The notes under the pieces were generated by a model. The model saw nothing but the letters and a program-made list of their open reading frames with translations, was not told the origin of the DNA and did no database searches. Of a stretch of 51,014 nt of DNA, positions 26,855 through 47,660 are shown in pieces. The stretch's first letter is position 1. Each line of letters begins with the position of its first letter. This stretch comes from Escherichia phage tiwna. The stretch lies in sequence record NC_054896.1. One strand, 5' to 3'. The translations under genes were made by a program, and so were the position numbers.

Positions 26855-27060
26855 TAAAATCAATAGTTTATTTATTTATGTATGTATATTTGTTTTTTCT
26901 TGTTATCTGTGTTTCTTGTGGTTTTGGTTGTTTGTGGTGATTTTTCTTTCTGAGTATCTGTATGTGCCATCATTCATGTGTATGTATATAATCCGGCGTA
27001 TCTGAGAGAACAAGGGAACAAGAAAAATAACACATATTAATCATTGACTTACGTTTCAAA
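26855..27060. repeat. GT-rich strand-biased noncoding region A, homologous to 47395-47660
   Basis: Shared blocks ttatttatttat, ttgttatct, gtatctgtatgtg and gggaacaagaaaaa; top strand almost devoid of C over about 80 bp. Confidence 0.5.
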
Positions 27061-36031: not shown

Positions 36032-36757
36032 ATGGCTAAAGATATTTTAGATAAAGACACCCATGACGCATTCGTTAGCTTTGAGCAGTTGGAGAGAGAA
36101 ACGTTTATAGGGAATGCCCTTGCAACTGGAGGCCATTACCAGGCAGTAAAGCCAAATCAATATTATAAGGTAAGTGGCAACCGATACGCTGGAAGCACCA
36201 CGCCGGACGTTGTGCGCGATATGTGGAGTACGCCTCAAGAGATCGTGGAGTGGATGGAATCAGAATTTGGTGAATACGATCTCGACGCGGCAGCAAGCCA
36301 GGAAAACGCAGTTTGCGAGAAGTTCTATAGCAAGGAGACAAACTGCTTAAAGCGTTGGTGGGGTAGCAACAAGCACGTATGGCTTAACCCGCCGTACAGC
36401 AACCCAACTCCATTTATCAAGAAAGCAATTGAGCAAATGGAGCACAACAACCAAATTGATGTTTTGTTGCCAGCAGACAACTCTACAGCATGGTTTTATG
36501 AGGCGCAGAAAAACGCGGCTGAAATCATCTGGATCACTGGTGAGGTTTACGAAGAGGGTGGAGTAGAATACTCCCGCACCGGAAGAATCGCCTTTGTGTC
36601 TGGATTGACTGGCGAGCCTGTGCAGGGCAACAACAAGGGAAGCGTGATTTTTGTCATGCGCAAACTTAAAGAAGGCGAGGAGCAGAAAACGCGATACGTT
36701 AAGATCAGCGATATTTGCCCTTCTGTAACCGAACGTCGCGCACGCAAACGGAGCTAA
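36032..36757 (+). CDS. dam: DNA N6-adenine methyltransferase (phage Dam-like)
   Basis: DLDAAAS and NPPY motifs; GGAG 9 nt before ATG 36032 (alternative ATG at 36005). Confidence 0.65.
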   Translation: MAKDILDKDTHDAFVSFEQLERETFIGNALATGGHYQAVKPNQYYKVSGNRYAGSTTPDVVRDMWSTPQEIVEWMESEFGEYDLDAAASQENAVCEKFYSKETNCLKRWWGSNKHVWLNPPYSNPTPFIKKAIEQMEHNNQIDVLLPADNSTAWFYEAQKNAAEIIWITGEVYEEGGVEYSRTGRIAFVSGLTGEPVQGNNKGSVIFVMRKLKEGEEQKTRYVKISDICPSVTERRARKRS

Positions 36758-36761
36758 CACG

Positions 36762-37019
36762 ATGGAAAAAGAGAGAAGCGTTTATTTAAATGAAACTGGC
36801 GAGTGGTTGTTATTTCGCGCTATGGTGTGCGATGCACTTGATAAAAACCCTAACGTGAAAAAGATGATTGATTGCGATCCGTGGGAATTTTCAAGCGCAT
36901 TAGATATGAGCTTTGAGGAGACAAGAAAACTCCCGCTTGAAAAATGGCACGAACAAATCAGAAATGACATGCAAGAGTTTGTCGATTCGTGGAATTTTCA
37001 GCACGGAATGATCCACTAA
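36762..37019 (+). CDS. hypothetical protein (85 aa)
   Basis: RBS ggag before ATG. Confidence 0.45.
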   Translation: MEKERSVYLNETGEWLLFRAMVCDALDKNPNVKKMIDCDPWEFSSALDMSFEETRKLPLEKWHEQIRNDMQEFVDSWNFQHGMIH

Positions 37020-37065
37020 TAGCACTTTTTGTTAAAACGCCCGGCCTAGTGTCGGGCATAATTAT
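37020..37065 (+). promoter_or_regulatory. conserved box plus hairpin plus -10 CATAAT; left arm of the ~46-bp inverted repeat
   Basis: TAGCACTTTTTGTTAAAAcgcccggcctagtgtcgggCATAAT, nearly identical to the reverse complement of 40234-40279. Confidence 0.55.
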
Positions 37066-37094
37066 TTCAACGAAGCAAGCATGAGGAAATAAAA

Positions 37095-37274
37095 ATGGTG
37101 GTATTCGATAAACGCGCTTTTAATCTTGCCCAAGAAGTAGCAAAAGGTTCAGTGGATGGCGGTTCAAAGGAAGGATTCCAGTTTGATTGGGAGATCGCAA
37201 TGTTTTTACTGAAAGTTGCATACGGTCACGCACCAATTGAACAAGCGGAGGCATATTATAAGCATGAAGGTTGA
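37095..37274 (+). CDS. small hypothetical protein (59 aa)
   Basis: RBS gaggaaat before ATG; below the ORF-track cutoff. Confidence 0.35.
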   Translation: MVVFDKRAFNLAQEVAKGSVDGGSKEGFQFDWEIAMFLLKVAYGHAPIEQAEAYYKHEG

Positions 37275-37506
37275 GCAAGGAAGAGATGCGGTATGGAATC
37301 ACGCTAAAAAATGCGGTATTGCCGACGATATAAAGAAGATCGCGCAATACTTTGATATTGCAGATGTGAGCATAATTAGCGGCGACAAGATGACTTTCCT
37401 CAAGGAAAGGCCGCGAAAAATGGTAAGAGTTCCAGCAGTTCCAACAAAAATTGATTTCAAAGAGGCAATGGCTAAAATCCGAGAGCCTCGCAAATATTAT
37501 AAATGA
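37264..37506 (+). CDS. hypothetical protein (80 aa)
   Basis: Internal ATG of track ORF 37216; overlaps the upstream small ORF. Confidence 0.4.
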   Translation: MKVEQGRDAVWNHAKKCGIADDIKKIAQYFDIADVSIISGDKMTFLKERPRKMVRVPAVPTKIDFKEAMAKIREPRKYYK

Positions 37507-37600
37507 GGATAGTTATCATGTGGCGCTTGTTTGTTCTACCGTTACCCGTTATCATCGCTGTTACAGTTATGTACCATATAGTGATGAGATAGGTAGCAGA

Positions 37601-38716
37601 ATGAAAAATGTAAAAATTACAGATGAGCAATTCAAGATCGAACGGGCGGCAGGTAAGACATATAAACAGATCGCTCAAGAGTACGGAATGAATGTGAGAA
37701 GCGTCGAGCGTCGCGCGGCGCGTCTTGCAAAGCAAGGACAGTTATCGACCATCGGAGCGCCTGGTTTTGGTGTTCATGGTGAGTCAGTAATGACTGACAA
37801 AGAAGGAAATATAATCCTCAAGTGGACCAAAACCAGCAAGGATAAAGAGCAATTAGAGGCATTGATGCGCGCAGCAATGGAGGCATTTAGCGAGGAAGTG
37901 CCGCGATTAGATCCAGTTCCATTGCAGGAGCGTAACTATAATGAAACGCTTTCATTGTATCCGATCTTTGACATGCACTTAGGAGCTATGGCCCATAAGC
38001 ACGAATGCGGCGAAAATTGGGATACTGCGACGGCAGAGCGCGTTATGAATAACTTTATCGACTATGCTTTGATGTGCGCACCGGACAGCGAAAAGGCTGT
38101 TATCCTGATTGGTGGCGATATGCTGCATAGCGACGGCCTGGAGGCGGTGACACCTGCAAGCGGTCACGTACTTGATCAAGATAGCCGATATGCAAAATTG
38201 GTTTACGTTGCAATCCGTGCAATGCGTCGCGCAATTAATAAAATGCTGTTAAAGCATAAACATGTTGAGGTCCAGATCGTAGAGGGGAATCACGACCAAT
38301 CAGGAATGATTTGGCTACGCGCAGCAATGGCGGCAGCATATGAGAACGAGCCGCGCGTTTACGTTGATGTTTCTCCTCGCGTTGTTCACCACACGCAATA
38401 CGGAAAAACTTTCCTTGCGTACCATCACGGGCACACAGTGCGTAAACCGGAGACTTTGCTAATGATGTGCGCGTCAGATTGGCGGGAGGACTTCGGAAAC
38501 TCAAAAACGATGTATGCGCACGTAGGGCACTGGCATCACCAGACCGTGACAGAAACGTCGCTTGGCATCGTGGAGGTGCATAGCACCCTGGCGGCAAAAG
38601 ACGCATACGCCGCGCGAGGTGGCTGGAGATCTCGACGCCGTGCAGCGGTTATCATTTACGACAAAGAGCATGGAGAAGTCGGGCGATTTGTTCACTATCC
38701 AGAAATGATGAATTGA
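37601..38716 (+). CDS. calcineurin-like metallophosphoesterase with N-terminal HTH-like segment
   Basis: Motifs DMH, GGDMLH, GNHD, HHGH and GHWHH in canonical order; N-terminal KTYKQIAQEYGMNVRSVERRAARL; start could instead be upstream at 37451. Confidence 0.5.
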   Translation: MKNVKITDEQFKIERAAGKTYKQIAQEYGMNVRSVERRAARLAKQGQLSTIGAPGFGVHGESVMTDKEGNIILKWTKTSKDKEQLEALMRAAMEAFSEEVPRLDPVPLQERNYNETLSLYPIFDMHLGAMAHKHECGENWDTATAERVMNNFIDYALMCAPDSEKAVILIGGDMLHSDGLEAVTPASGHVLDQDSRYAKLVYVAIRAMRRAINKMLLKHKHVEVQIVEGNHDQSGMIWLRAAMAAAYENEPRVYVDVSPRVVHHTQYGKTFLAYHHGHTVRKPETLLMMCASDWREDFGNSKTMYAHVGHWHHQTVTETSLGIVEVHSTLAAKDAYAARGGWRSRRRAAVIIYDKEHGEVGRFVHYPEMMN

Positions 38717-38762
38717 TGAATTTTTATTTAAATCAATGACAAATTAAATCAAAAACTTGCAA

Positions 38763-38791
38763 AGGGGCGGCGTTTGTCGCCTCTTTTTTTT
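38763..38791 (+). terminator. rho-independent terminator
   Basis: Imperfect hairpin ggggcggcg...cgcctc followed by T8. Confidence 0.5.
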
Positions 38792-38861
38792 GTTTAATTC
38801 TTTATCATGTGCGTTTATCATGCGGTCAATATATTGACTTTAATTAATATGGAGAATAAAA

Positions 38862-39077
38862 ATGAAAGATTTTATTAACGCAGCTACCGCCGGATCTGGC
38901 GGTTCATCTATCGCAAGCGCCGCTACAGGGCAGTTAACCATTGCTATTGCCAGCTTTGTTTTAATGGCTGCATTCGGTGCATGGGGCGCTTACCTTCGCT
39001 GGCGTGATAGTAAAAAATTCCACGAGGCGATCGAAAAAGGTGATATTCAAAAAGCTATTGAGATCAGGGGCAAGTAA
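38862..39077 (+). CDS. holin (possibly pinholin-type)
   Basis: 71 aa with a Gly/Ala/Ser-rich first hydrophobic segment, a second TM and charged C-terminus; immediately upstream of the endolysin. Confidence 0.6.
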
Positions 39078-39568
39078 TGAGCATAAAGAACAGGGTAGCG
39101 GCTGCGGCCTTTGGCGTTGCGGTTGCCTTGACTTCTCCACTTCTTGAAGAGATCGAAGGGGTAAGATACAAGCCATACAAAGATATTGCGGGGGTATGGA
39201 CGGTTTGCGCAGGAATCACCGGACCCGATGTTATCCTGGGGAAAACGTACACTAAAAAAGAGTGTGATGCTTTGTTGGCTAAGCATATCCAGGTTGCTAA
39301 AAAGGAAGTTGACAAGCAAGTTAAGGTTGACATTCCTGATAGTATGCGTGCAGCAATGTACTCATTCACTTACAATGCAGGTGTGGGAGCTTTCAGAAAT
39401 TCAACAATGCTGAAACTCATCAATCAGGGGAAATTAAAAGATGCTTGCGATCAGCTTTATCGTTGGACGTATTACCATAACCCCAAAACAGGAAAGCGCG
39501 AGAAGTCTAAAGGCTTACTTAACAGGCGCAAGGTCGAACACAAATATTGCACAATGGATCTGAAATGA
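39077..39568 (+). CDS. SAR endolysin (lysozyme, E-x8-D-x5-T type)
   Basis: N-terminal weakly hydrophobic [12 protein letters not shown] signal-anchor-release-like segment followed by a catalytic E..D..T spacing ([16 protein letters not shown]). Confidence 0.7.
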
Positions 39569-39960
39569 TGAAGAAATTTTTACTTACACCAATCGCAATG
39601 GCGGTGATCTTGTCTGGATGTTCAAGCGTTACGCCACTGACCGGATTAATCGGCAGTAAGCCGGAAATCACAGCACAGGCTGGCGCGGAGAACGTGAAGC
39701 AGACAGTTGGCATTACAGAAAAGCATGACGCCAGCACAAAACAGAAAACCACAATAAAGGAATCTGCGGTTGACAAGGTTGACACGTCCAGCAAGAAGGA
39801 TTTCACAACATCAACCATTCAGGCCAATACCATCAAGGCAGACAAAATTCAGGTCGTGCAGGGTAATAACGGCAGATGGTACGATCCAATAATCATATGC
39901 GTGGTTGTGTTAATTGTGCTGATTTGTCTTTACTGGAGAGAAAAGAAAAAGGAGGCTTAA
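39565..39960 (+). CDS. unimolecular spanin (lipoprotein with C-terminal TMD)
   Basis: Lipobox ILSGC at the N-terminus and C-terminal [18 protein letters not shown], as in the T1-type u-spanin; the track start is TTG, real ATG at 39565. Confidence 0.6.
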
Positions 39961-39976
39961 TGCCTCCTTTATTTTT
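39945..39976. terminator. bidirectional terminator
   Basis: Hairpin aggaggcttaatgcctcct with flanking A- and T-runs, overlapping the spanin stop. Confidence 0.55.
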
Positions 39977-40199
39977 ATGCGTCGGGCCACATATGAGTTT
40001 CGTTTGTTGGCTTGTTCGATTCTTCGTACTGCCTTACTTCAATGCTGCAAGTGTCGCCGTACAGTTCTGCAATCTTGCGCTCATTTTCAACAGCCGATTG
40101 CTCACTCCATCCAAAATCCCTGTCATAAATTGTCGGGATTTCAGCAGAAGATCCGTTGTCATGATTATATACGCGAACTACTAAAAACTTGCTGGACAT
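39975..40199 (-). CDS. hypothetical protein (74 aa)
   Basis: First gene downstream of the minus-strand promoter module at 40236-40279. Confidence 0.45.
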   Translation of the reverse strand: MSSKFLVVRVYNHDNGSSAEIPTIYDRDFGWSEQSAVENERKIAELYGDTCSIEVRQYEESNKPTNETHMWPDA

Positions 40200-40233
40200 A
40201 ATTTTACCTTTTGGTTGTTTCGTTTCGATGAAA

Positions 40234-40279
40234 CAAATATACCCGACACTAGGCCGGGCGTTTTAACAAAAAATGCTAT
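40234..40279 (-). promoter_or_regulatory. conserved box plus hairpin plus -10; right arm of the ~46-bp inverted repeat
   Basis: Reverse complement reads ATAGCATTTTTTGTTAAAAcgcccggcctagtgtcgggTATATT. Confidence 0.55.
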
Positions 40280-40470
40280 TCCATACGCTTTACCGTAACC
40301 AGTAATACACCATCATCATTGCATAAAACATGTTCAGTGGTGCTAAAAGCGCGCATATCTGAATAAAGTAGCGTAAGTAAAGCATGAATAAAATCCTCAT
40401 GTGATATTGAATTTACGGCGCAGTGCTTCAAGATCTTGTCTATTAGCTTTTGCCTGGAACAATTCATCAT
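40276..40470 (-). CDS. hypothetical protein (64 aa)
   Basis: GGGGAG RBS; stop codon is the TAG of the box; overlaps the upstream gene by 74 nt out of frame. Confidence 0.4.
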   Translation of the reverse strand: MMNCSRQKLIDKILKHCAVNSISHEDFIHALLTLLYSDMRAFSTTEHVLCNDDGVLLVTVKRME

Positions 40471-40792
40471 CGCCCATCTCCCCTATTCTCGCCATATCCC
40501 TGATCCAGTCGTTGCGCATACCATCCAGGCTATACAATTCGAATCCGAAAGGCCGCTTTGACGATCCTTTGGACCAGTATTTACCGCAGACCCCATCTAT
40601 ATAGCCAGCCGTCATCATTCTTGCGCAAAATTCCTTAGATGCAAGGCTGGCGAACATTCGCGGCGTAAGTCCGGCGGCCCGTGCGAGCCGCTCACATTCT
40701 CTATGCTGATAGATAAATTTGGCTATGTGCTGCCTGTTAAACCAGTCGTATGACTCACACCATTTATACAGATCAAGCAAAAACATAATCAT
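40397..40792 (-). CDS. hypothetical protein (131 aa)
   Basis: ATGA coupling to the upstream ATPase gene. Confidence 0.45.
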   Translation of the reverse strand: MIMFLLDLYKWCESYDWFNRQHIAKFIYQHRECERLARAAGLTPRMFASLASKEFCARMMTAGYIDGVCGKYWSKGSSKRPFGFELYSLDGMRNDWIRDMARIGEMGDDELFQAKANRQDLEALRRKFNIT

Positions 40793-42369
40793 CCCAGCAG
40801 TATTGGATTGACAAAAATAACACCATTAATAACACAAACATAATTTCTTTCTTCCAGCATTGGCAGCAAGTGCCCTTCTATCCTCTTCATTACGCCAGCT
40901 TGACCAACGAAAGGTTTTACCTTTCTCGCTGATTCGTACAGGGCGCGAATATTCAGAATCCCTTTATTAGCCTTGCCGTGTCTAGTGATCAATTCAATCA
41001 ATTTGCCCATTTCAGCATCATCACCAGCATAACCAGAAGCATTGGCGGCGCTAATGTATGTTTTGCTCAATTCCTGAAACATGATCAGCGCCTCTTGCAT
41101 TGTTTCCACGTCGATCTCTTTCGACTTCTGCTGGTATCCAGCAGGATTAAACCAGTTGCGGATAACATGCAGGACGGAAGCAAGCCTGATCACCTGTTTA
41201 TCCATTTTACCCAGCGCACCGCGTAACATTGTATGAGAATACTTTCCGCCGTCTGCAAGATGCGGTTCCATATCCTGGCGAGCAATGTTGAGCACTCGCA
41301 TAGCTGAACGGCTTATTTTCAGCGATATATTTGATTCGCTCATGATGTTATGCACCAATTGATAATATTGGGCCTTCAATTCAGGATCCACCGCCTCATA
41401 GGTAGAATCACCATTTTCATCAATGAATGAGCGACGGCCTAAGAATGATTCCTCACGGACCAACAAAAAGCGCTCACTCACACCGATACCGCGCGATCCA
41501 GCGTCCATGATTCCGCTTATCGTTTCATCCTGGGCTATAACGCTCATACATCCAAGCGCGCGAAAACTCATGTTATTGTCAGCATTAGCACGGGCGATTG
41601 ATACGTGACCATTATCCCACGCCTTAAGCACTAGCTCGCTGTTAGTCTTCCTTTCGCTATTGGCATAGGTCAAGCCTAACAGGCTGTTAATACTTGTTGC
41701 TTCGTCAGATATTACGGCAAAGTTACCTTGCTTGTTGTTGATTTTCGCCAAGCCTTCTGGAGTTGTATCTGAAACAGGGAAAGTTATATCACACATTTTT
41801 TCCAGCTTCTCCTCCAGATCCTCTTTTTCCTGGTATAGAGATTCCATATCAGCGCCTGATCTTTCGCTTTTCATCTCCTTTGCAAGACCTGCCAACTTTG
41901 CCTGTATTTTCTTTCTTTCCTTGCGGCGTTGCTCGTTGATCTTCTCAACTTCCGCAATCATCGGAGCAATAGCCATGCTGTTGATCGCAGATTTACCAGT
42001 TGACGGCGGCTGGCTTGTAACGACGTAAAGCGCAGTCGGCTGATCGGTCCCGTGATAGTCAACCGTAAAGCGTCCAAGCATGGCGGCAGAAATGCAGCCG
42101 ATAAAGTGCATGTAAGCCGATGATTCAGGGAATTGAACGGATCGCGCAATGCTGCGTGATAACTTTCCGACAACATCAATATCATTACCAAGAGAAATTA
42201 CGGGGTAGCGATCGTGACCGCTATTTACATCCTTCACGTCGCCCCAAAAGCTGGACGACTGGCGATAGCCGTTAGCCTGAATTGATACGCGAACTGGTGA
42301 AAGGTTCTGGCTTTCAGCCATAGCGATTATTTGCTGTGGAGTTAATTTGTTCGTTTCTAATGAAAACAT
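40789..42369 (-). CDS. P-loop NTPase of unknown function (526 aa)
   Basis: Walker A SQPPSTGKSAI and Walker B-like FAVISDEA; GGAG RBS; first gene after the promoter box at 42423. Confidence 0.5.
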   Translation of the reverse strand: MFSLETNKLTPQQIIAMAESQNLSPVRVSIQANGYRQSSSFWGDVKDVNSGHDRYPVISLGNDIDVVGKLSRSIARSVQFPESSAYMHFIGCISAAMLGRFTVDYHGTDQPTALYVVTSQPPSTGKSAINSMAIAPMIAEVEKINEQRRKERKKIQAKLAGLAKEMKSERSGADMESLYQEKEDLEEKLEKMCDITFPVSDTTPEGLAKINNKQGNFAVISDEATSINSLLGLTYANSERKTNSELVLKAWDNGHVSIARANADNNMSFRALGCMSVIAQDETISGIMDAGSRGIGVSERFLLVREESFLGRRSFIDENGDSTYEAVDPELKAQYYQLVHNIMSESNISLKISRSAMRVLNIARQDMEPHLADGGKYSHTMLRGALGKMDKQVIRLASVLHVIRNWFNPAGYQQKSKEIDVETMQEALIMFQELSKTYISAANASGYAGDDAEMGKLIELITRHGKANKGILNIRALYESARKVKPFVGQAGVMKRIEGHLLPMLEERNYVCVINGVIFVNPILLG

Positions 42370-45601: not shown

Positions 45602-45744
45602 AGTCAACAACTCCAAACTCGTTAACGATTTGCGCCTTGTAGAATCCGCCATTTTTCGCTAGGTTGTAACAAGCGGCTACGGTTTCAAATTCGCGCGCTT
45701 CCGGCTGGCTGTTTTCATGTTCCCAGGTAATCAGAGTAACCATT
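45589..45744 (-). CDS. small hypothetical protein (51 aa)
   Basis: ATG about 58 nt downstream of the box at 45802; ATGA coupling to the next gene; below the ORF-track cutoff. Confidence 0.3.
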
Positions 45745-45801
45745 TTCAAATCCTCGCATTCGTTGTCGATGCGTGTAATGTACAGGAATGCGAGGATTGA
45801 G

Positions 45802-45820
45802 TTTTAACAAAAAGTGCTAT
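45802..45820 (-). promoter_or_regulatory. conserved box, minus orientation, with -10 at 45777-45782
   Basis: TAGCACTTTTTGTTAAAA then 19 bp then TACATT. Confidence 0.5.
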
Positions 45821-47394: not shown

Positions 47395-47660
47395 ATTGAA
47401 AAATAAGGATTATTTATTTATATGTATCTATATATTCTCTTTTGTTATCTTGGTTATTGTGGTATTTGGTGGGGTATATAGTTTTTGTGTATCTGTATGT
47501 GTGTATGGGTATGTAGGGGCATATATATCTATATGGCACTTTCCGCGAGAAAACTTCGATAACAGGCAATGATAACATTGATTTATAAGGAAAAATAACG
47601 CCTATATTGTTATTGTGCCACCATGTAAAATTGATAAAACACGCGGGAACAAGAAAAAAC
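47395..47660. repeat. GT-rich strand-biased noncoding region B, homologous to 26855-27060
   Basis: Shared blocks ttatttatttat, ttgttatct, gtatctgtatgtg and gggaacaagaaaaa; G-runs ggtgggg and gtagggg. Confidence 0.5.

Follow-up and report, generated by a model that had tools for sequence, protein, structure and literature searches.

Two near-identical putative promoter/stem-loop cassettes converge on the phosphoesterase and lysis genes of Escherichia phage tiwna

Genes and inverted repeat at the locus

The window, the whole 51,014-nucleotide stretch of Escherichia phage tiwna (NC_054896.1) analyzed here, shares 98.9% identity with phage FritzSarasin over the studied region and belongs to Warwickvirus (Drexlerviridae, T1-like coliphages). 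Two arms of an inverted repeat enclose two or three plus-strand units and one minus-strand ORF, split by terminator-like hairpins (Table 1). Arm 1 leads into orf59, orf80, and a phosphoesterase gene, and its transcription unit likely ends at the hairpin behind that gene. Arm 2 leads into a single 74-amino-acid ORF, orf74, and each arm is co-oriented with its own downstream gene. The endolysin matches the Pfam family Phage_lysozyme (E 5e-39), and a PDB sequence search with the phosphoesterase gave no match. A reading of the region made from the sequence alone (the sequence-only reading) had described a bracketed lysis region; the holin, endolysin, and spanin do lie inside, but the segment is not a single lysis module.

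Table 1. Features of the two arms and the segment between them
Feature	Coordinates	Strand	Basis or detail
Arm 1, putative box-promoter/stem-loop cassette	37018..37074	+	Repeat search, module alignment, hairpin scan
Arm 1 box	37019-37037	+	Reads AATAGCACTTTTTGTTAAAA
Arm 1 spacer stem-loop	37039-37057	+	Stem G37039-C37045 with G37051-C37057, loop CTAGT
Arm 1 -10-like hexamer CATAAT	37057-37062	+	
Arm 1 predicted start (CA)	A37069	+	Leader then runs to ATG 37095
orf59 (phrog_2180), first gene behind arm 1	37095..37274	+	ORF call, PHROG
orf80 (phrog_2817)	37264..37506	+	ORF call, PHROG
Phosphoesterase / "DNA repair exonuclease" (phrog_704)	37601..38716	+	Weak, sub-threshold N-terminal HTH matches
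Terminator-like hairpin with T-run, after phosphoesterase gene	38761..38786	+	Hairpin scan
Lysis genes	38862..39960	+	Holin 38862-39077, endolysin 39077-39568, u-spanin 39565-39960
Bidirectional terminator-like hairpin	39948..39970	both	Called on both strands; plus and minus transcription converge here
orf74 (phrog_27210), sole cargo gene behind arm 2	39975..40199	-	ORF call, PHROG
Arm 2, same cassette type as arm 1	40224..40280	-	Repeat search, module alignment, hairpin scan
Arm 2 predicted start	A40229	-	T-rich leader TGTTTCATCGAAACGAA; ATG 40199
Arm 2 -10-like hexamer TATATT	40241-40236	-	
Arm 2 stem-loop	40259-40241	-	
Arm 2 box	40279-40261	-	Reads AATAGCATTTTTTGTTAAAA
orf64 (phrog_9539), last gene of minus-strand helicase operon	40276..40470	-	ORF call, PHROG

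A repeat search of the window pairs the two arms over 57 nt, with 52 of 57 positions (91%) complementary and a gap of 3149 nt. The longest perfect run, found by direct sequence comparison, spans 31 nt (37026-37056). The repeat claimed by the sequence-only reading is present and slightly longer than stated there, although its match of 46 of 49 comes to 42 of 46 over its own 46-nt coordinates. That reading also had the arms facing outward; they are in fact convergent, with arm 1 on the plus strand reading rightward into its ATG and arm 2 on the minus strand reading leftward. The distance from box start to ATG is 76 nt in arm 1 (37019 to 37095) and 80 nt in arm 2 (40279 to 40199). On the upstream side, the TAA stop codon of orf85 (37017-37019) abuts the arm 1 box, and the TAG stop codon of orf64 (40278-40276) lies inside the arm 2 box, where transcription of the helicase operon would enter the arm from upstream. 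An Rfam scan of positions 36800-40500 at E-values up to 1 returned no match at the arms, and its three weak matches elsewhere are far below threshold.

The box-module family and its stem-loops

Both arms are members of a 21-nt repeat family of Drexlerviridae with the consensus aaATAGCACnnnTTGnTAAAA. In TLS and other T1-like phages, this sequence forms intergenic direct repeats that run along transcription, lie ~76 nt before start codons, and number ~18-21 copies per genome (PMC11447400). The box in the window is the same as the published TLS repeat, and its position, orientation, and ~20 copies likewise place the arms in that family. Depending on the mismatches allowed, 19-22 copies occur in the window, against 0.11 expected by chance, and 18 of 22 are followed by the Shine-Dalgarno sequence and start codon of a co-oriented ORF, 24-54 nt past the hexamer. 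The 2024 TLS paper left the function of the box as a question, naming a stoperator, an enhancer site, or a UP-like element, and its authors annotated terminators T62 and T57 directly after repeats DR12 and DR10 (PMC11447400). It covers the 21-nt box only, and not the fixed -10-like hexamer, the covarying stem-loop, the near-identical inverted pair, the spacer transfer, or the cassette swaps described here.

The modules run in a fixed order of box, 19-nt spacer, -10-like hexamer, CA, leader, Shine-Dalgarno sequence, and ATG, and the consensus of 83 diverged modules reads aAATAGCACTttTTGtTAAAAc-N16-Gg-tAtaaT-N5-CA. In the cassette that we propose, the upstream box ATAGCACTTTTTGTTAAAA would occupy about -50 to -32, followed by a spacer that usually forms a GC-rich stem-loop, the -10-like hexamer, and a putative CA start; a short conserved leader, the Shine-Dalgarno sequence, and the start codon would make up its 3' part. 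Each arm would start transcription of the gene directly downstream, and its stem-loop, in RNA arriving from the upstream operon on the same strand, would terminate or attenuate read-through. Both activities, promoter and terminator, are predictions from sequence.

A scan for the sigma-70 consensus calls neither arm as a promoter, because the upstream sequences TTGTTA and TTAAAA stand 22 bp and 19 bp, respectively, from the -10-like hexamer. This result counts against a canonical promoter, and the promoter reading is retained; the modules may either leave a -35 element unused or need an additional factor. A literature search by sequence (TTTTTGTTAAAA, ATAGCAC) returned the TLS paper alone, and a search of the transcriptome literature on T1-like phages found no start-site data. 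The cassette model predicts transcription start sites in these phages.

The spacer shared by the arms forms a 7-bp stem-loop whose stem ends on the first base of the hexamer, and compensatory changes across genera keep this stem paired. In an alignment of arm-type stems restricted to the 5-nt-loop subset (A2), which excludes GAAA-loop and TLS-type arm-1 variants and has rows partly picked for a common hairpin register and two rows from other loci, 91 of 91 cells are paired and both-sided changes occur at five of seven pairs, compared with 16-42% pairing in slid controls. Across all arm orthologs (A1), no single structure string fits, since the 5' arm is displaced by one column in the GAAA-loop variants. 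Folding extends to the family as a whole: 76% of 132 unique modules fold at z < -1.5 relative to shuffles that kept mononucleotide composition only, with the hairpin either in the spacer or holding the -10 element inside its loop.

These substitutions also bear on whether the GC-rich dyad in the spacer, identical in both arms, is an operator through which one dimeric regulator, bound at both promoters, would control the two converging units together. The annotation of the close relative tonijn does include a "transcriptional regulator". Among orthologs, however, the sequence varies while pairing is kept, through C-G to G-C flips and G-U pairs that exist on the sense strand only, a pattern that fits a single-stranded structure rather than a duplex recognition site. 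Unrelated hairpins occupy the same place in other modules, and the arms differ from each other in several Warwickvirus genomes, all of which makes the operator decidedly improbable.

A hairpin scan under loose settings (7-bp stem, at least five T in eight) calls both arms terminator-like on the sense strand, with interrupted tails (ATAATTATTT, ATATTTGTTT). The post-stem tails (AUAAUUAUUU, AUAUUUGUUU) are only moderately rich in U, and a U-run is absent from many family members, so calling the module stem-loops terminators may go too far. The strand on which they act is a separate matter. Each arm could mainly terminate transcription in the opposite direction, shielding the converging block from any transcription that passes the central terminator: the arms bracket the convergent region, the arm hairpin is followed on the other strand by GTTTTAAC, and every spacer hairpin, read on the opposite strand, runs into (G)TTTTAACAAAAAG from the box. 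This arrangement is nevertheless unlikely, as the G-U pairs of the stem turn into A-C mismatches on that strand and the terminator scan does not call the arms there. Family-wide, the sense fold is the more stable (48 versus 19 modules, mean -1.95 kcal/mol, p = 4e-6), and most cassettes have co-directional genes on either side, a setting in which an antisense terminator would serve no obvious purpose.

Spacer transfer and cassette exchange among relatives

The two arms stand out within the family. Across 190 pairs of box modules, the arm pair matches at 52 of 57 positions against a mean of 30.7 of 57, and its spacers are identical (19/19), with 12/19 in the runner-up pair. The 20-nt spacer core occurs just twice in the window, once in each arm, against a chance expectation of 0.01. 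The sequence-only reading had allowed that the arms might resemble each other no more than other box promoters do, and this does not hold, because they are more alike than any other pair.

The two arm loci are orthologously conserved across genera, but the likeness between them is not: the spacers of the two arms agree at 15-19 of 19 positions in Warwickvirus, at 12-15 in Hanrivervirus, and at 7-8 elsewhere. Arm 2 reads (c/a)(a/t)cccgatctNgtatcggg in Hanrivervirus, in Changchunvirus, and in two more groups of contigs with different arm-1 hairpins. In Warwickvirus, arm 2 carries the arm-1 stem (cgcccgRcct..gtcggg), yet keeps the arm-2 hexamer TATATT and leader. As the arm 2 stem differs in the other genera, Warwickvirus arm 2 probably acquired the arm-1 spacer, and the mosaic points to short-patch gene conversion. 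The largest possible conversion tract is 37026-37056 (31 nt), and the smallest that explains the data covers spacer positions 2-14 (37039-37051); the direction and number of conversion events follow from parsimony over ~20 genomes. Phage A136 shows a second transfer: its ortholog of module 43115(-) of the window has an arm-1-type spacer.

Other origins of the arm identity are less likely. Convergence is unlikely because four of the five changes are structurally coupled, and chance was rejected on the mosaic pattern and on the database junction tests. The high identity of the arms (52/57) could also reflect a recent duplication of the whole arm 1 cassette in this lineage, with no conversion. 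The match to arm 1 is limited to the spacer; arm 2 has a hexamer and leader (TATATT TGTTTCATCGAAACGAA) whose orthologs stand in arm 2 of other genera and which are unlike those of arm 1 (CATAAT TATTTCAACGAAG), so a whole-cassette duplication is very unlikely. The "duplicated promoter" of the sequence-only reading is thus apt insofar as the arms are paralogous copies within a family of ~20, while their extra identity in Warwickvirus is better explained by spacer transfer. In the mechanism that we favor, the arm-1 version would have overwritten the arm-2 spacer stem-loop in the Warwickvirus lineage by short-patch homologous recombination over a tract of 13 to 31 nt, with the conserved box and the -10/leader region supplying homology. 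The phage's own ExoVIII/Erf system is the probable agent; the genome annotation of tonijn, the close relative, lists exonuclease VIII, an Erf-like annealing protein, and SSB.

Close relatives also differ in the arm-2 cassette as a unit. Between damhaus and two other Hanrivervirus members (L015 and L009), both flanks are ~97% identical, and the sole replacement affects the ORF bounded by the terminator and the arm-2 leader; the replacement ORF belongs to phrog_10679 and is unrelated to the orf74 protein. In four other relatives (L003, L005, L026, and L027), arm 2 and its ORF are missing. The breakpoints in close relatives fall at the arm-2 leader and at the convergent terminator, the hairpin at 39948-39970 that forms the inner boundary of the cassette. 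Arm 2, its single ORF, and the terminator behave as a swappable mini-cassette, which supports for arm 2 the suggestion of a module-exchange boundary, through clean ORF replacement in Hanrivervirus and loss of arm 2 with its ORF in others.

An inverted repeat of 57 nt with a 31-nt perfect run, in a phage family with a homologous recombination system, raises the question of whether the arms delimit an invertible segment, with recombination flipping the 3.1-kb phosphoesterase-lysis block into two isomers of different expression. Inversion might be tolerated, and would leave every gene behind a promoter because both arms are putative inward-facing promoters. Against this, the arms are two ordinary copies out of a dispersed family of 22, and their spacer identity decays to 7-8/19 in other genera with gene order kept. 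Pfam and PHROG scans found no serine invertase or tyrosine recombinase among the ORFs of 36762-40792, and the annotation of the tonijn genome includes neither an invertase nor an integrase. The convergent layout is the same in every one of the 19 genomes or contigs that carry both arms (18 loci and the window), and none of 282 related phage records covers at least 80% of the inverted junction. The parental junction is found in nine of nine IMG/VR and metagenome contigs that contain the left flank of arm 1, scans that add little weight because few contigs were returned (3 and 6, respectively). Inversion isomers are absent as far as databases show, and the proposed site for inversion finds no support, with no invertase, one layout in 19 of 19, and no record with the inverted junction; assembled sequence could, however, miss rare isomers within a phage population. 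An invertible segment is accordingly extremely unlikely, and programmed inversion as the cause of the arm identity was rejected because of the mosaic pattern and the junction tests in databases. The Gin/Hin/Cin G- and C-segments and the shufflons likewise have inverted repeats around a few kilobases; here, in contrast, a site-specific recombinase is lacking, relatives show no alternative orientation, and the repeats are promoter-type cassettes present in ~20 copies.

Taken with the observed sequence architecture, stem covariation, arm mosaic, cassette swap and loss, and absence of fixed inversions, the arms are likely paralogous Drexlerviridae promoter/stem-loop cassettes in converging directions, in which the arm-2 spacer has been overwritten by arm 1 and arm 2 serves as a swappable mini-cassette. 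They are mutually inverted only because each belongs to one of two transcription directions, which converge on the terminator at 39948-39970. The inverted repeat alone is an ordinary by-product of a dispersed promoter family.

Comparison with known systems

The closest analogues of the arms are the PeSL (promoter-early stem-loop) cassettes of T4-type phages, described in RB49/phi1, PST, and nt-1 (PMC2839356, PMC4122927). In these cassettes, a stem-loop is placed between the promoter elements or covers the -10 element, the stop codon of the upstream gene marks the 5' edge, and a Shine-Dalgarno sequence with an ATG marks the 3' edge. Their promoters match the sigma-70 -35/-10 consensus, and both promoter and terminator activity have been measured. 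Small ORFs of unknown function accompany the cassettes, whose copies recombine to give insertions, deletions, and replacements (PMC2839356, PMC4122927). Box modules have in common with PeSL cassettes the many dispersed copies of a promoter with a stem-loop, the edges, the small ORFs, and the recombination outcomes. They differ in belonging to another phage family with no sequence relationship, and in the promoter itself: PeSL promoters have -35 and -10 elements 16-18 bp apart, whereas box modules have no -35 at a usable distance and carry a distinct box at -50 to -32. By the features that mark PeSL cassettes, box modules have a stable stem-loop in or over the promoter and breakpoints at small ORFs, and lack a sigma-70 consensus promoter. 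PeSL activities have been measured, while those of box modules are predicted from sequence features.

It is possible, as a tentative generalization, that box modules are the siphovirus counterpart of PeSL cassettes, combining a box and -10 element without a -35, a strand-specific stem-loop that filters read-through, and ectopic ExoVIII/Erf recombination as the main source of gene gain, loss, and replacement in this family. The stem-loop would lie in the spacer or present the -10 element in its loop, and in at least one module, 45820(-), it would also hide the ribosome-binding site, in read-through RNA only. With no -35, a phage factor would probably be needed. If this generalization is true, low-level inversion isomers of the phosphoesterase-lysis block, formed between the two arms with their 31-nt identity, are predicted in any Warwickvirus lysate. 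The analysis of the arms also offers a concrete, testable answer to the question raised in the TLS paper, in that the 21-nt repeats appear to be the upstream part of PeSL-like promoter/stem-loop cassettes. For work on T1-like phages, including the BASEL collection and therapy candidates, the modules mark natural insertion slots such as the arm-2 slot, and call for caution since near-identical cassettes can recombine.

The arm-2 unit further recalls the morons of lambdoid phages, which are units of a promoter, a single gene, and a terminator. Unlike in morons, the putative arm-2 promoter is not foreign but the standard cassette of the phage itself, and its slot is fixed; because this phage is virulent, there is no hint of prophage expression. 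The likeness lies in the unit itself, as arm 2, orf74, and the terminator form a self-contained block that is present, absent, or replaced among close relatives.

The inverted repeat and its surroundings

The inverted repeat is real and statistically clear, and its explanation is ordinary: it consists of two copies of the phage's usual regulatory cassette in convergent orientation, probably made near-identical by ectopic conversion. The arms match at 52 of 57 positions and share a perfect run of 31 nt. The cassette's box, ATAGCAYTTTTTGTTAAAA, occurs 19 times in the window with at most three mismatches (0.11 expected) and 22 times under a looser pattern, while the arms' spacer core occurs in the arms and nowhere else in the window (chance expectation 0.01). 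Of the 190 pairs scored with all modules anchored on the box, that of the two arms stands out most (52/57; mean 30.7, sd 4.9), and its variable spacer is identical at 19/19 positions versus 12/19 for the next-best pair. The arms are thus more similar than any other two box modules compared, so that the first of the two refuting conditions set by the sequence-only reading fails.

Features of the inverted repeat and other sites in the window
Feature	Coordinates	Strand	Remark
Arm 1	37018-37074	+	reads right into orf59 (ATG 37095)
Arm 2	40224-40280	-	reads left into orf74 (ATG 40199)
Perfect run between arms	37026-37056		31 nt
Stop codons at the arm boxes	37017-37019; 40278-40276	+; -	orf85 TAA; orf64 TAG
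CA and leader of the arms	37068-37079; 40230-40219	+; -
Phosphoesterase	37601-38716	+	'DNA repair exonuclease' (phrog_704)
Strong terminator-like site	38761-38786		parts phosphoesterase unit from lysis genes
Bidirectional terminator-like hairpin	39948-39970	both	terminator scan; meeting point of two transcription directions
T-rich low-complexity stretches	26868-26966; 47410-47501		TTATTTATTTATGTATGTATATTTGTTTTTTCTTGTTATCTGTG...; 62-73% alike, ~20.5 kb between

The sequence-only reading had the arms facing outward around the lysis region; they are convergent and face inward. The plus strand carries helicase, VRR-NUC, Dam, orf85, arm 1, orf59, orf80, phosphoesterase, holin, endolysin and u-spanin, and the minus strand, in the opposite direction, helicase, YdbL-like, orf64, arm 2 and orf74. 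Because the two directions meet at one internal hairpin and a second divides the phosphoesterase from the lysis genes, the bracketing of the lysis region is incidental, and the repeat is rejected as a lysis-module boundary.

At its N terminus the phosphoesterase has weak, sub-threshold matches to Sigma70_r4_2 and HTH_28 (aa 16-46, E 0.002-0.01), as well as to a PHROG 'transcriptional regulator, D5-like'; a PDB sequence search gave no match. The protein may combine a DNA-binding domain with a nuclease or phosphatase; a connection with the box would be pure speculation.

Escherichia phage FritzSarasin (Drexlerviridae, Tempevirinae, Warwickvirus) shares 98.9% identity with the region 36500-40800, and more than 50 further coliphages match this region at 95-99%. 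In vB_Eco_mar001J1 and EC167 (hits H16-H18) it aligns as two pieces with ~480 additional bases; an HNH endonuclease is annotated in vB_Eco_mar001J1, and a homing-endonuclease insertion within the segment is likely in some Warwickviruses. About 20 coliphage-like Drexlerviridae records are named 'Campylobacter phage' (for example MG065687.1, L026, and MG065643.1, H37). A136, the one record examined among them, is classified as Hanrivervirus and flagged UNVERIFIED; the host named in these records is probably an error or a result of contamination.

Cassette architecture and the stem-loop

Box-aligned copies follow a common plan: a 19-nt box, a 19-nt spacer, a -10-like hexamer (CATAAT, TATATT, TATAGT, TACATT and others), 5 nt, CA, a leader that is often TCGAAACGA, a Shine-Dalgarno sequence and ATG. 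A Shine-Dalgarno sequence and co-oriented ORF start lie 24-54 nt past the hexamer in 18/22 window copies. The box is the 21-nt direct repeat aaATAGCACnnnTTGnTAAAA published for phage TLS and reported also from T1, Rtp and Rogue1; the TLS paper leaves its role open (PMC11447400).

If the hexamer is set at -12 to -7, the box occupies -50 to -32, leaving TTGTTA 5 bp too far upstream for a -35; a sigma-70 consensus scan called neither arm. The cassette differs from a textbook sigma-70 promoter. Since there is neither a usable -35 nor a consensus-scan call, we infer its putative promoter function from the -10-like element and from the geometry and orientation of the modules. The conserved CA and TCGAAACGA-like leader, ~6-17 nt past the hexamer in most modules, coincide with the predicted transcript 5' end and are kept across genera more strongly than the spacer. 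At both arms and many further modules, the intergenic space is essentially the cassette. In the close relative tonijn, gp25 (L035 21974-22450, minus strand), a 158-aa annotated 'transcriptional regulator' adjoining the primase gene, is a candidate box-binding factor.

The spacer, identical in both arms, forms a stem of 7 bp and a loop of 5 nt, the final stem base being the hexamer's first base. Alignment A2 of this stem has 11 rows taken from the two arm loci across genera and two rows from other loci picked for the same hairpin register. In this set, chosen in part for one register and leaving out the GAAA-tetraloop and TLS-type arm-1 variants (which also fold), 91/91 stem cells are standard-paired, and 5/7 pairs show two-sided changes, among them C-G pairs that a Klebsiella phage has as G-C. 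As a control, a shift of the 3' partner by 1-3 columns lowers pairing to 16-42%. Family-wide, 76% of 132 unique modules fold at z < -1.5 against mononucleotide shuffles, with the hairpin in the spacer or around the -10 with the hexamer in the loop.

In 48/68 diverged representatives, the sense strand folds more stably than the antisense strand (Wilcoxon p = 4e-6; mean difference -1.95 kcal/mol), and the arm stems include G-U pairs. This points to a structure forming in sense RNA, in transcripts entering from the upstream gene. Since the predicted start site lies downstream of the stem, a transcript begun by the cassette itself would lack the stem. Both arms are terminator-like on the sense strand in a terminator scan, and the TLS authors annotated T62 directly past DR12 and T57 directly past DR10. 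Read most economically, the cassette is a composite element in which the stem-loop would terminate or attenuate the upstream operon and the overlapping signals would start the next gene.

In modules 532, 903, 3507, 42441(-) and 50115, the stem flanks the hexamer, which lies in the hairpin loop; paralogues show compensatory changes (GGGCTT/AAGCCC vs GGCCT/AGGCC). In the 45820(-) module (~45735-45805), the spacer CCTCGCATTC is a perfect complement of GAATGCGAGG, a stretch spanning the downstream gene's Shine-Dalgarno. RNA from upstream has a predicted fold of -20.6 kcal/mol with the ribosome-binding site hidden, and RNA from the predicted own start one of -2.3 kcal/mol with it exposed.

Probable spacer conversion, module exchange and the search for inversion

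The arm-1 module lies upstream of the orf59 homologue in all genera examined, and the arm-2 module comes after the YdbL/orf64 genes in Warwickvirus, Hanrivervirus, Changchunvirus and two more contig groups, the latter with different arm-1 hairpins; both loci are old. The arm-2 sequence outside Warwickvirus is (c/a)(a/t)cccgatctNgtatcggg + TATATT + tgtttcatcgaaacg. Warwickvirus arm 2 combines the arm-2-type hexamer and leader with the arm-1 version of the stem (cgcccgRcct..gtcggg). The spacers of the two arms agree at 15-19/19 positions in Warwickvirus, at 12-15/19 in Hanrivervirus and at 7-8/19 elsewhere. Such a mosaic is expected from short-patch gene conversion with arm 1 as donor and arm 2 as recipient; the tract would span 13 to 31 nt, its limits set by the hexamer and by the C/T difference in the box. 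In A136, the module orthologous to window 43115(-) has an arm-1-type spacer and matches window arm 1 at 89%; here a second, independent transfer can be seen. In tonijn, exonuclease VIII, an Erf-like annealing protein and SSB are annotated and neither an invertase nor an integrase is; recombination would presumably be by the phage's own system.

The proposal of a module-exchange boundary is borne out for arm 2. Hanrivervirus damhaus (L002) shares ~97% identity with L015/L009 along 5.4 kb to one side and 2.6 kb to the other, and their sole difference is the segment from the convergent terminator to arm-2 leader position +17. There damhaus encodes an orf74 homologue (phrog_27210); L015, L009, herni and L034 have a different 73-78 aa ORF (phrog_10679), unrelated to it (BLASTP E = 0.88). 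Arm 2 and its ORF are both absent from JohannLBurckhardt, a Klebsiella phage, PHB17 and A136. These replacements and absences show arm 2, one ORF and the terminator to be a swappable mini-cassette, the conserved cassette sequence serving as one breakpoint.

Inversion between the arms, also proposed, found no counterpart in assembled sequences. A 507-nt query for the inverted junction, as made by crossover within the arms, matched 282 of 50,697 phage records, 0 with at least 80% coverage in one place; the best match (61% coverage) was the parental arm-2 side. A pattern admitting parental and recombinant left junctions alike found no recombinant in IMG/VR and metagenomes (9/9 contigs parental), and the convergent layout is common to 19/19 two-arm genomes or contigs (18 loci and the window). 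With fixed isomers absent from phage records, IMG/VR and metagenome contigs, an inversion switch is rejected.

Relation to known cassettes

Both arms belong to the already described Drexlerviridae DR family, and their wider value is the insight they give into it. Functionally, the nearest described system is PeSL of T4-type phages: dispersed cassettes of a sigma-70 promoter and a stem-loop between -35 and -10 or over the -10, edged by an upstream stop codon 5' and a Shine-Dalgarno and ATG 3', with measured promoter and terminator activity, and with recombination between copies producing indels and replacements of small ORFs (PMC2839356; PMC4122927). The Drexlerviridae cassettes are PeSL-like in every respect visible from sequence. 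They lie outside the PeSL family because they belong to another phage family, have no sequence relationship to it and depart from its defining sigma-70 -35/-10 consensus.
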